IMG/VR virus record: IMGVR_UViG_3300045988_033443
Span: 1 to 38,654 of that record
DNA: 38,654 nucleotides
Source: a virus
Direction: 5' to 3' (one strand)
The notes beneath the pieces are model-generated. The model was not told the DNA's origin and made no database searches. It worked only from the letters and a program-made list of their open reading frames with translations. Shown in pieces: positions 1,202 to 32,334 of the stretch. The position numbers and the translations under genes were made by a program. The first letter of the stretch is position 1, and each line of letters begins with the position of its first letter.

Positions 1202-1358
1202 GCTTCGGTAGCTCAGTGGCAGAGCACAAGGGATAGCACAGATACCAGAGGACGGAACAGACCGGCCATGGCTTCCTACTTCTTTAAATCGAATGCCCGT
1301 GATGATAAAGACAGTGCACCTCACACAAGCGCTGGTTCGACTCCAGCCCGAAGCACCA
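1202..1358 (+). tRNA. tRNA-like gene with perfect acceptor, D- and T-arms and encoded CCA, but about 100 nt in place of the anticodon arm
   Basis: GCTTCGG (1202-1208) pairs with CCGAAGC (1348-1354), followed by A and CCA. D-arm is TA GCTC AGTGGCA GAGC A (1209-1226). T-arm is GCTGG TTCGACT CCAGC (1331-1347). No 5-bp/7-nt anticodon hairpin was found in 1227-1330. Confidence 0.6.
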
Positions 1359-25240: not shown

Positions 25241-25271
25241 ATAATTGGCCATGTCAGCAAAGGAGACCAGC

Positions 25272-26441
25272 ATGGCCTACACCATCCGCCAATACGCGAC
25301 GAAAGCCGGAAAAAGATACGAGGTGCGCTACCGCAAGCCGGACGGGTCGTCCACCGGAAGGCGTGGCTTCAAGCGCAAGATGGACGCCGACGCCTGGGGT
25401 GCGGCCAATGTGACCACAGCGAAAAGCGTCGGAGCTTACATCGACCCACAGGCCGGAAGAAGACTCGTGGAGGACTTCTGGGAGCCGTGGCTGGCCGCCA
25501 AGAAGACCAAGGCGAAGCCAAGCTACATCAAGTCGCTGGAAGACGCTTGGCGAGTGCATGTGGAGCCGCAGTGGGGCATGAGGGAGATGCAGTCAATCAC
25601 GCGCGACGAAGTGCAGCGGTGGGTCACCGATCTGGCAGGACGACGCAGTGCGTCAGTGACCATCCGTGCTGAAAACCTCCTGCGCAGCCTCATGGAGAGG
25701 GCAAAGGCCGATCGGTGCATCCACGACAATCCATGCGACGGCATCGAGCTGCCGCGCAAGCAGGCGCGGAAGCATGTCTATCTGTCGGCCGATGAATTGT
25801 CTCGTGTGGCGATGCAGTGCGGGTGGCGTGAGCCGATCGTGCTGACCTTGGGCCTGTGCGGCATGAGGTGGGGCGAGCTCGTGGCGCTCCGTGTCGAGGA
25901 TGTCGATCTGCAACGCCGTCGACTGCATATATATAGGAGCATCACGCGTCTTTCCAGCAGGATGGTGGAGACCGACCCGAAGACCCATGATGGACGCTCG
26001 GTGATGTTCCCCCTGGTGTTGCGTCCGCTGCTCGCCAAGCAATGCGAGGGGCGCAGGCCGTCCGATTTCCTTTTCACCGCCCCCGGCGAGCCTTTGGACG
26101 AGCCGATGGGCAACGGCTGGAATCCGACGCGAAGCGATGGGTGGTTCGCGGTGGCTCTTCGTCGCGCGGGCGTGGACCGTGGCCACATGACGATTCACGA
26201 TCTACGCCATACGGCCGCTAGTCTCATGGTGCAGTCGGGCGCGAACGTCAAGACAGTGCAAAGGCAGTTGGGGCACAAGTCGGCCGCCATGACATTGGAT
26301 GTTTACGCCGATCTCTTCGATGATGATCTGGACGAGTTGTCGGAGAGGATGGGTGGTTTGCTTTTTTCGCGGAATGTGGGCAAAATGTGGGCAAACGTGA
26401 CGCAAGGTGTCGATGGAACCGTTGAAACGGTTGGTGTCTGA
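25272..26441 (+). CDS. int: tyrosine integrase
   Basis: ATG at 25272 follows AAGGAG. N-terminal SAM-like MAYTIRQYATKAGKRYEVRYR. C-terminal HDLRHTAASL...LGHKSAAMTLDVYADLF supplies the R/H-x-x-R/Y catalytic signature. Confidence 0.9.
   Translation: MAYTIRQYATKAGKRYEVRYRKPDGSSTGRRGFKRKMDADAWGAANVTTAKSVGAYIDPQAGRRLVEDFWEPWLAAKKTKAKPSYIKSLEDAWRVHVEPQWGMREMQSITRDEVQRWVTDLAGRRSASVTIRAENLLRSLMERAKADRCIHDNPCDGIELPRKQARKHVYLSADELSRVAMQCGWREPIVLTLGLCGMRWGELVALRVEDVDLQRRRLHIYRSITRLSSRMVETDPKTHDGRSVMFPLVLRPLLAKQCEGRRPSDFLFTAPGEPLDEPMGNGWNPTRSDGWFAVALRRAGVDRGHMTIHDLRHTAASLMVQSGANVKTVQRQLGHKSAAMTLDVYADLFDDDLDELSERMGGLLFSRNVGKMWANVTQGVDGTVETVGV
26376..26393 (+). repeat. arm-type repeat GTGGGCAAAATGTGGGCA (left of attP core, inside the int 3' end)
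   Basis: Exact 18-mer, also present at 26586-26603. Each copy holds two TGTGGGCA half-motifs. Confidence 0.8.
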
Positions 26442-27424: not shown

Positions 27425-28186
27425 ATGAAAATCAGGTATCTTTTCTGGGCCATCGTCTGCATATGCGCCGCATGGACCGGACTTTTCGGGGACATGGGCG
27501 ATACGAGCATAGGCACGAGAATCGTCGTCGCTTTAATATTCATCGTTGCGGCCATCTACCTTTTCGGCAAATTCAAGGGCGGCGCCAATACGTCTAAATC
27601 ATCGCCGGAAGCCCCATCGGACGCCACGGCAACGCAGGCGGCAGAGGCGGCCGACACGGAGCGTGGGAACGTCGTGGAAGCCGATTATGACGATTACGTG
27701 GCAATCGACATCGAAACCACAGGATTAGGCAGAAGCGCTCGAATCATCGAATTGGGAGCCGTGAGAATCAGGCACGGGCGCAAAGTCGCGTCATACAGCC
27801 AGCTCGTCAATCCCCAGATTCCGATTCCAGCCAAGGTCACGCAGATCACCGGCATCACTGATCGGGACGTGCGACACCAGCCCACCATCGACAAGGCATT
27901 GCCAAGATTCTACGCTTTCTGTGGGCGTGACACTTGGATAGGCCACAATATCCGGCGCTTCGACCTGCCGGTCATCGCCCGCGAAGCCGAAAGAGTGGGC
28001 GCCGGAATGCCGGACGTGAGCTTTTATGACACGATGGAATTATCCCAGGCATTGCTGCCGCAGCTCGACCATCATCGCGTGGTAGACCTCATCCGCTACT
28101 TCGGCATCGCCAAGACCGAGCGTCATCGTGCCGCCGACGATGCTGCACAGACAGCGCAAATCTTCGAGCATTTGAAGCGGATATAA
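27425..28186 (+). CDS. membrane-anchored DEDDh (DnaQ/epsilon-like) 3'-5' exonuclease
   Basis: Two N-terminal TM segments (YLFWAIVCICAAWTGLF; IVVALIFIVAAIYLF). Exo motifs VAIDIETTGL, HNIRRFDLPV and HRAADDAAQTAQIF. Confidence 0.75.
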   Translation: MKIRYLFWAIVCICAAWTGLFGDMGDTSIGTRIVVALIFIVAAIYLFGKFKGGANTSKSSPEAPSDATATQAAEAADTERGNVVEADYDDYVAIDIETTGLGRSARIIELGAVRIRHGRKVASYSQLVNPQIPIPAKVTQITGITDRDVRHQPTIDKALPRFYAFCGRDTWIGHNIRRFDLPVIAREAERVGAGMPDVSFYDTMELSQALLPQLDHHRVVDLIRYFGIAKTERHRAADDAAQTAQIFEHLKRI

Positions 28187-31863: not shown

Positions 31864-31947
31864 GAACACGTTCAGGTCGTGTTCCAACAGTCAAAGTGGC
31901 GCTCGGAATCCACGGACGGCACTGGTTCGACTCCAGTGCCAGCCACT
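31864..31947 (+). ncRNA. tRNA-like element: Leu(CAG)-type anticodon hairpin plus acceptor/T-arm minihelix, with no D-arm
   Basis: GAACACG TTCAGGT CGTGTTC (31864-31884). AGTGGC (31895-31900) pairs with GCCACT (31942-31947). GGCACTGG TTCGACT CCAGTGCC (31918-31940). Confidence 0.45.
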
Positions 31948-32004: not shown

Positions 32005-32334
32005 ATGAGCAAAAGGACAACAATGAACAGCGAGAAGAGCAGGACGCTGAGATTCACACTCTCGGCCGAATGCATTGGAAACGAGAACGCCACCAACTCG
32101 ATCATCGGCGAATTCATCATGCCGTTAGACGCATCCGATGATCTGGTATGCAGCGTTCACCCGCCCGGCGACAGACTCGGCGGAATAACCGCACTCGCAG
32201 CCCGAATCGCATGCCAGTCCCTCGACGTTGCGCTCAAAAGGCATATCGAACGCGGCGGCAGCGACACCGTGGAAATGGTTGACGGCCTCTACATCGACCA
32301 CAATGGGAATCTTCAGGACGCCGGCCATGAGTGA
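32005..32334 (+). CDS. hypothetical protein (109 aa)
   Basis: ATG at 32005 follows AAGGAG, in the frame of track ORF 31879..32334. Confidence 0.6.
   Translation: MSKRTTMNSEKSRTLRFTLSAECIGNENATNSIIGEFIMPLDASDDLVCSVHPPGDRLGGITALAARIACQSLDVALKRHIERGGSDTVEMVDGLYIDHNGNLQDAGHE

Follow-up and report, generated by a model that had tools for sequence, protein, structure and literature searches.

A loose class of transfer RNA (tRNA)-derived or tRNA-mimicking non-coding RNAs (ncRNAs) comprises transfer-messenger RNA (tmRNA, SsrA), YrlA and phage leader RNAs processed by RNase P. Among the last, the C4 RNAs of P1/P7 and the CI RNA of P4 are regulatory RNAs embedded in leaders and cut out by RNase P via tRNA-like features; they are about 77–80 nucleotides (nt) long, their alleles are exchangeable specificity cassettes, and their antisense targets lie just downstream. 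Ponchon and Dardel reportedly engineered a "tRNA scaffold" that carries a cargo RNA in place of the anticodon stem-loop. YrlA is a modular ncRNA with tRNA-mimicking and effector-binding modules and is also known from phages of Actinobacteria (PMC4201824), and Lak megaphage tRNAs with unexplained "enigmatic" introns have been described (PMC6784885). Here we analyze an element at positions 1202–1358 of the IMG/VR virus record IMGVR_UViG_3300045988_033443, whose 38,654 nt (positions 1 to 38,654) make up the window. Comparison with its relatives shows what appears to be a tRNA-shaped molecule under selection at the RNA level, with a structured cargo domain, located at the start of the late gene unit and behaving like a cassette.

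The family assembled around this element comprises 72 distinct sequences of 145–163 nt, which fall into two clades that share about 67–69% identity: clade A, which resembles the window (n = 51), and clade B (n = 21). In the window, the tRNA shell is laid out as follows:

1202–1358, + strand: whole tRNA-shaped RNA, 157 nt
1202–1208, + strand: 5′ strand of the acceptor stem, GCTTCGG, pairing with CCGAAGC at 1348–1354
1209–1226, + strand: U8-A9, D arm and A26, TA-GCTC-AGTGGCA-GAGC-A, with the stem at 1211–1214/1222–1225 and the loop AGUGGCA, which includes GG
1331–1347, + strand: T arm, GCUGG-UUCGACU-CCAGC
1348–1358, + strand: 3′ strand of the acceptor stem, discriminator A1355 and encoded CCA (1356–1358)

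The element thus has the 7-base-pair (bp) acceptor stem, D arm, T arm and discriminator (plus CCA) of a canonical tRNA. It lacks the canonical anticodon arm (5-bp stem, 7-nt loop, U33, defined anticodon); a helix at this position continues for 9–10 bp into a junction, and the gap between D and T arms is 104 nt (1227–1330) vs. an expected 17-nt anticodon arm. An initial annotation, made by a model from the sequence alone, had described the acceptor, D and T arms, the ACCA end and the 104-nt gap, all of which hold on rereading the sequence and are supported by Rfam. With permissive Rfam filters applied to 1100–1450, the sole meaningful match was to RF00005 (tRNA), aligned to 1202–1355 over model positions 1–71 (41.2 bits, E = 1.5e-7, gathering threshold 29), with 100 nt placed where the model has 17 anticodon-arm positions; at gathering thresholds the whole window gave no Rfam match. 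Because RF00005 spans the element only by replacing that arm, we take the tRNA shell to be statistically real and the anticodon arm to be truly absent. ARAGORN in default mode reported 0 tRNA and 0 tmRNA in the window, which confirms the annotation's finding of no canonical anticodon hairpin; only in intron mode does the program call the element a tRNA, with an intron of 70–84 nt. The family model finds a single copy in the window (164 bits).

Acceptor positions 1–6/67–72 show no variation at all across the family. The structural prerequisites of an RNase P substrate, and these are structural only, are present: a 12-bp acceptor/T coaxial stack, a D-loop GG facing the T loop and, for most members, RCCA. 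The shell has A73; some clade-B 3′ ends read ACUU, and two read GCUA. Its nearest matches among 58 phage tRNAs that have the same first 14 nt, a biased set, are all tRNA-Phe(GAA), although the element itself has no GAA anticodon: one phage tRNA-Phe reads AGAGCACGAGAUUGAAGAUCUUG..., vs. AGAGCACGAGGGAU, the cargo and then AUCCC... in the element.

In place of the anticodon arm, the comparative model predicts a prolonged anticodon stem, a covarying helix of 9–10 bp that opens into a junction:

1230–1239, + strand: 5′ strand of the long helix, GGGAU, bulged A1235, GCAC, pairing with 1314–1322
1240–1249, + strand: junction strand J1, AGAUACCAGA, of the form A-R-AUACC (AUACC in both clades) followed by a variable 2–3-nt linker
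1250–1267, + strand: hairpin H1, GGACGG, variable loop, CCGGCC; GGUCGG/CCAACC in clade B
1268–1301, + strand: hairpin H2, in which AUGG (1268–1271) pairs with CCGU (1297–1300; CCRU in the family)
1302–1313, + strand: junction strand J3, AUGAUAAAGACA, A-rich and of varying length, with UGAUGA in most members
1314–1322, + strand: 3′ strand of the long helix, GUGC-ACCUC
1323–1330, + strand: linker at the variable-loop position, 8 nt here and 3–4 nt in clade B

The long helix reads GGGAU-(A)-GCAC/GUGC-AUCCC in clade A and GGAAU-(A)-GCG/CGC-AUUCC in clade B. It is 88% paired and includes one pair that changes between G-C and A-U (21 sequences) and another that changes between A-U and G-C (9 sequences); the window's own copy is slightly imperfect (one G.U, one A.C), and folds of the window sequence also yield it. 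The T stem occurs in three versions related by double changes, GCUGG/CCAGC, GUGGG/CCCAC and GCCGG/CCGGC, and is 99.7% paired. Taken together, the proposed structure is 93% paired on the 72-sequence alignment, vs. 29–39% when the 3′ partners are slid by 1–3 columns. Conservation in clade A is 0.985–1.0 for stem columns and 0.78–0.82 for loop and linker columns; stems that are kept while loops are free form the pattern that would be expected of a structured RNA. The H1 stem is near-invariant within each clade (conservation 0.998, vs. 0.80 for its loop), and is 83% paired with no double changes and one fixed internal mismatch per clade. The H2 stem is 100% paired, with a one-sided change between U.G and U-A, and its interior (1272–1296) is hypervariable in length and sequence, with a short version in one relative (L190). 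Covariation in the insert is therefore found in part: the long helix has double changes, while H1 and H2 have one-sided ones only. An open reading frame (ORF) on either strand fails to explain the conservation, because the length differences among variants are not multiples of three; these differences break both a 70-amino-acid ORF at 1157–1369 and an AUG at 1268.

Three other features reported by the annotation are present in the window and carry little meaning beyond it. The hexamer CACAAG does occur at 1225–1230 and 1324–1329, but relatives read GCACGAGGG / CACACCATGC there; as a target-site duplication it was rejected, being not conserved, and removal of the insert would leave no anticodon arm. 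An imperfect hairpin (1247–1257 with 1273–1283) can be drawn here and is 56% paired across the family, vs. 83–100% for the helices proposed above. The insert is indeed richer in AT than its surroundings (50% G+C, vs. 62% for the shell and 59% for the window), which has no meaning of its own and is due to the variable 3′ half (39% G+C, vs. 58% for the 5′ half).

The family model found the element intact in 60 of the 80 loci selected via the large terminase (TerL) and in 65 of 80 selected via the gene upstream of the element, with one further degenerate copy in the latter set. It was also present in all 8 places that encode a 71%-identical upstream protein, including one NCBI Bifidobacterium genome assembly, and a scan of one genome per species located it in Bifidobacterium ruminantium DSM 6489 and in a metagenome-assembled genome labelled Collinsella. 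Named sources of the upstream protein are B. catenulatum and B. adolescentis. Since the window also encodes a tyrosine integrase (25245–26441), RecT, YqaJ exonuclease and SSB, these host names point to temperate phages of the B. adolescentis group. A search of GenBank phages yielded a single matching record, the unannotated MT836208 (from human faeces); its element is 89% identical to the window's copy, and the T stem (GTGGG/CCCAC vs. GCTGG/CCAGC) differs by two compensatory pairs. Between genomes whose upstream genes are 77% and HNH endonuclease genes 85% identical, the element is 94% identical. All true matches in IMG/VR to a pattern of the cargo only carried the same shell. The annotation had allowed that relatives might have an ordinary tRNA here and the insert be a strain-specific indel; no relative with an ordinary tRNA was found, and the element is a conserved family.

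We tentatively favor, as having close to an even chance, the reading that this is a tRNA-Phe-derived, non-decoding scaffold ncRNA whose cargo domain is the working part. The shell would be a tRNA-Phe-like acceptor/D/T body in which a junction of about 75 nt, with H1 and H2, replaces the anticodon loop. Transcribed with the late-operon leader, the element would recruit host tRNA-maturation enzymes through its shell, with RNase P acting at G1202 and trimming or CCA addition at the 3′ end; these enzymes would free the RNA from the leader, and the product would have a stable, well-defined fold like that of a tRNA, as in the engineered tRNA scaffold. The cargo would then bind a protein or an RNA and have an accessory function late in infection, for example as a decoy or regulator. 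Of the three options raised in the initial annotation, the scaffold ncRNA has gained from the covarying long helix and the lack of a consistent anticodon, the intron has been weakened, and decay is unlikely.

Several results weigh against the scaffold reading. Searches of the phage genome for antisense targets (motif searches, short BLAST and a duplex-energy scan) gave none that were significant, the best energy in the scan (−51.8) falling inside the shuffled range of −45 to −52, and no partner protein was found to covary with the type of cassette. The cargo alone is not unusually stable thermodynamically (z = −0.7), and because changes in H1 and H2 are one-sided or the mismatch is fixed, these hairpins are supported by sequence conservation, not covariation. 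Nor is the "perfect tRNA shell" kept strictly throughout the family: most clade-B members have a T-loop C55 together with an A7.A66 mismatch. Finally, the depth of independent evolution is limited because all members belong to one phage group.

Comparison with the systems introduced above places the element in their loose class, where it is best filed, and outside each described family, because the defining features of tmRNA, YrlA and the phage leader RNAs fail. The annotation's comparison with tmRNA survives as topology: in both, the ends form an acceptor/T-arm module with CCA and the body is joined via a long helix at the anticodon-arm position. The features that define tmRNA are absent, as the element lacks a tag ORF and a pseudoknot series and is 157 nt long (vs. 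260–400 nt); it has an invariant U3-A70 instead of G3:U70 and an intact D stem, and both ARAGORN -m and Rfam were blank. A tmRNA-like tag was also rejected, since only four sense codons come before the UGA-UGA-UAA run in J3, and relatives do not keep this run (there is a single stop in L013). YrlA likewise joins a tRNA-mimicking module to a second, effector-binding one, but its connectivity is reversed, with both ends placed in the effector stem and a loop closing the "acceptor", whereas the element's acceptor is open with CCA, and Rfam gave no match. The P1/P7 C4 and P4 CI RNAs share with it an operon-leader position, tRNA-like features and exchangeable alleles; they differ in having no full cloverleaf shell and in having known downstream antisense targets, none of which were found here. 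The engineered tRNA scaffold also keeps the acceptor, D and T arms and replaces the anticodon stem-loop with cargo, so that the cell processes and stabilizes the product like a tRNA; it is man-made, and the element would be its counterpart in nature, equipped with a conserved cargo. Rfam 15, annotated phage records and literature searches yielded no description of this RNA.

The immediate surroundings of the element, on which several of the alternatives depend, contain the following features:

377–1129, + strand: Zn-ribbon protein gene (phrog_908), named "PhnA protein" in Bifidobacterium records and always linked to the promoter, hairpin and slot
1113–1140, + strand: sigma-70-type promoter, TTGACT, 16-nt spacer, TATACT, with TG before the −10
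1157–1199, + strand: terminator-like leader hairpin of about 12 bp with a U-run, AAAUGGUUCAGCC/GGUUGGACCAUUU, which always precedes the element
1374–1682, + strand: HNH endonuclease gene (phrog_338, E = 1.8e-26), the first of the packaging block

The promoter matches 10 of 12 consensus positions, is the sole one in 900–2500, extends across the stop codon that ends the upstream gene, and is kept in all relatives with the slot. The leader hairpin has a folding energy of −20 kcal/mol (z = −4.6; 0 of 200 shuffles), and its variants covary (GGUUCAGCC/GGUUGGACC, GGCCCAGC/GCUGGGCC and GGUCCAGCC/GGUUUGGACC); because these variants use G.U pairs that work only on the + strand, it is an RNA hairpin of that strand. 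As the annotation stated, the element lies directly ahead of the HNH/terminase packaging block, with the HNH start codon (ribosome-binding site AAGGCGGUG) 15 nt past the CCA. In relatives, three unrelated HNH families, with varying spacers, stand behind the same RNA; the unit thus consists of promoter, hairpin and RNA and is independent of pairing with downstream sequence. The Zn-ribbon gene lies in a frame of 179–1129, and translation probably begins at an internal Met near 377 because homologues have about 250 residues; our guess is that its product has a regulatory role. In lambdoid phages, an antitermination system made up of the Q regulator, the PR′ promoter and the tR′ terminator comes ahead of the late genes, and by analogy the layout here, with a regulator-like gene, promoter, terminator-like hairpin and late genes, appears similar. 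In Shiga-toxin lambdoid phages, tRNA genes lie downstream of PR′-tR′, giving the same order of regulator gene, strong promoter, terminator, tRNA gene(s) and late genes, though those are ordinary decoding tRNAs. The −10-like hexamers TATGTT and TAAAAT occur in the initial transcribed region.

The slot between leader hairpin and HNH gene is not reserved for the tRNA-like RNA. About 15% of relatives that share the upstream gene, promoter and hairpin have in its place an unrelated RNA of about 150 nt, here called X, which sits after the same promoter and leader hairpin and ahead of HNH. Its copies include, among others:

L069:2782–2935, RNA X
L383:2230–2384, RNA X
L386:2195–2348, RNA X
L402:2242–2395, RNA X
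L432:2194–2346, RNA X
L438:2237–2388, RNA X

The sequence TCGCTATAAT stands ahead of X, whose 11-bp terminal stem (UGUCCGGCAUG/CAUGCCGGACA) is joined by several internal helices; from only 8 sequences, RNAalifold folds X with 44 pairs, 8 of which show compensatory changes. Searches of X for an Rfam family, a tRNA or a tmRNA were blank, and a motif common to X and the tRNA-like RNA was rejected as local alignment scores lay below the shuffled range. Both RNAs are found with each HNH type, and the region is mosaic. A third insert in the slot (L441:2100–2340, about 190 nt) has no similarity to either. Several independent deletion or degenerate alleles occur as well (L071:2855–2928, L255:3248–3320, L426:~2180–2240 in L426/427, L437:2178–2302, L026:916–1039, and ~2920–2960 in L011/L043). 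In the alleles of 74–78 nt (L071, L229, L255) a deletion runs from H1 into the T arm, and tRNA finders reject all of them; one of 74 nt joins CCAACGGTC in H1 to CGACTCC of the T loop, and its tRNA length is coincidental. Together, X, the L441 insert, the deletions and the mosaic region indicate that the tRNA-like RNA is dispensable and exchangeable. Such dispensability, as judged from these genomes, would fit an accessory function better than an essential step in late expression.

A broader reading, which we consider rather unlikely, is that the late-operon-head slot of temperate Bifidobacterium phages, directly behind a terminator and a promoter that looks constitutive, holds interchangeable structured-RNA cassettes that act in trans as accessory effectors, the commonest being the tRNA-Phe-shell scaffold. 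The cassettes might, for example, regulate infection or act as decoy RNAs that counter host defences. If this is true, they would be an RNA counterpart of variable protein "moron" or anti-defence loci.

Some relatives without the element (L015:1523–1622, L014, L017, L020, L036 and L078) have a normal tRNA-Trp(CCA) with a 100-nt "tRNA-Pro(GGG)" directly behind it. The latter is called only by ARAGORN, in intron mode, has a long extra arm, contains GGGAUAGCG and is without support from Rfam. A link between it and the element via the shared 8-mer GGGAUAGC was treated as chance.

An unlikely but reasonable alternative to the scaffold reading is that the element is a cis-acting module of the late-operon leader, in which the tRNA shape is an RNase P or 3′-processing signal or a 5′ structure, and no free functional RNA results; it might part the terminator-containing leader from the HNH-terminase mRNA, stabilize that mRNA or aid read-through. 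Its position speaks for this, as the element always lies between the promoter with terminator-like hairpin and the first late gene, whose start codon is so close to the CCA, and the slot also takes another structured RNA; the P1/P7 C4 and P4 CI RNAs are cut from leaders by RNase P. However, a plain tRNA or hairpin would suffice for such a task, leaving the conserved cargo of about 85 nt unexplained, and the spacer and downstream gene vary freely. Relatives with the same TerL and HNH but no element, or with deletions in it, moreover argue that late expression does not need it.

We regard as improbable that this is a real tRNA gene with an unconventional intron, like those of Lak phage tRNAs, whose removal gives a decoding tRNA. 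The shell scores as tRNA, ARAGORN, when run in intron mode, assembles a tRNA around an intron of 70–84 nt, and UGC (clade A) or CGC (clade B) adjoins the 3′ side of the helix. The anticodons predicted within clade A are nonetheless inconsistent (Ala(UGC), Thr(AGU), Ala(AGC), Ala(GGC)), clade B gives no call and has no U33, and the residual anticodon stem would have only 3–4 bp, with extra nucleotides after position 26. An Ala anticodon would be useless here because Ala needs G3:U70, which is absent, the pair being an invariant U3-A70. Known splicing routes offer little help: the catalytic core (P3–P9) of a group I intron is usually 200 nt or more, vs. an insert of 70–104 nt, and no Rfam intron family matched at E ≤ 10 in 1100–1450. 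An archaeal-type, bulge-helix-bulge intron was rejected since, on inspection, the sole 3-nt bulge, AUA/A (1233–1235), 5′ of the 4-bp helix GCAC/GUGC, has no symmetric partner and the hosts are bacterial. A Pfam scan of 25 phage proteins turned up neither an RNA ligase nor RtcB, and no intron-less allele was found at this locus or elsewhere. Unlike an intron-bearing pre-tRNA, then, the element would be left by removal of its insert with no canonical, consistent anticodon arm, and it has neither a group I core nor bulge-helix-bulge geometry. The one precedent is the "enigmatic" Lak tRNA introns, which also come from a gut phage and also interrupt the anticodon region with conserved sequence (PMC6784885). 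Other insert-bearing tRNA-shaped genes in IMG/VR, described next, also count in favor of an intron.

A generic scan of IMG/VR yielded eight more tRNA-shaped genes with 60–80-nt inserts and perfect acceptor stems that are unrelated to the Bifidobacterium family (L271, L287, L298, L299, L308, L318, L351 and L352). In L287 and L308 the insert lies between the D arm and an intact anticodon arm, and in L299 it resembles a variable arm of about 68 nt. A separate "tRNA inside a tRNA" family (L264, L266 (L266:3130–3266), L335, L372, L377, L378 and L379) has an outer shape with a matched 7-bp acceptor stem, D arm and T arm; its insert in the anticodon region contains a second T arm and then a D arm, and looks like a permuted tRNA. 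It recalls the case of a Lak phage in which a tRNA may be encoded within an intron (PMC6784885). These genes suggest that the phenomenon is wider than the family studied here and largely unexplored.

It is very improbable that the element is a decaying tRNA pseudogene, broken by an insertion and carried along by linkage without function. Deletion and degenerate alleles do circulate, clade B has its relaxed T loop and acceptor mismatch, and some members have lost the encoded CCA. Compensatory double changes, stems better kept than loops, an element better conserved than its flanking genes (94% vs. 77–85% identity) and intact copies in about 75–80% of >160 loci stand against this, and bear out, with 72 intact sequences, the annotation's view that the arms and CCA argue against simple decay. 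Scarcely credible is a DNA-level signal (cos/pac, att site or regulator binding site) with a chance resemblance to tRNA, for although the element adjoins the packaging genes, contains the palindrome GCCATGGC and shares a 15-nt copy of its T arm with 31922–31936, the G.U-tolerant, strand-specific covariation of its stems argues for RNA, it is not beside the integrase (25245–26441), and phages with the same terminase and HNH are without it.

Three further candidate identities for parts of the insert were rejected. A hammerhead or a C/D-box k-turn based on "GUGAUGA" fails as the C3 equivalent is G or A, there is no CUGA partner, the motif is not in all variants and Rfam was blank. A mimic of the sarcin-ricin loop, UACCAGAGGACGGA, would have a tetraloop that varies (UA, AAU, CA, AAC), and pairing of the cargo (CCRRCCAU) with the leader hairpin (AUGGUUGG) is not kept in leader variants.

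If the scaffold reading is true, the element would show that the "tRNA scaffold" principle, at which RNA engineers arrived independently, also exists in nature, in abundant phages whose hosts belong to a key genus of the human gut, and would add a new family beside tmRNA and YrlA to the short list of tRNA-derived non-decoding RNAs. It would also mean that phage genomes contain an RNA-cassette locus that is invisible to protein-centred annotation. It would also bear on the nature of the "enigmatic introns" in phage tRNA genes. Such genes escape default tRNA finders and are wrongly labelled tRNA-Ala or tRNA-Thr in intron mode. Shell and promoter could together be a ready-made RNA expression scaffold in Bifidobacterium.

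Two other features of the window are of interest. An RNase_T/DEDD exonuclease gene (27425–28186) in the early region matches PF00929 (E = 1e-33) and, weakly, an Rv2179c-like 3′–5′ exoribonuclease; its product is probably a DNA exonuclease, yet it is the sole candidate on the phage for an RNA 3′-end enzyme. A T-arm-like hairpin, GCACTGG-TTCGACT-CCAGTGC, lies at 31919–31945, in an intergenic region upstream of a gene that starts at 32006. Rfam gave no match to it, and it shares the 15 nt CTGGTTCGACTCCAG (31922–31936) with the T arm of the element (blastn-short E = 0.004); it could represent either the 3′ fragment of a tRNA or a core resembling that of an att site.

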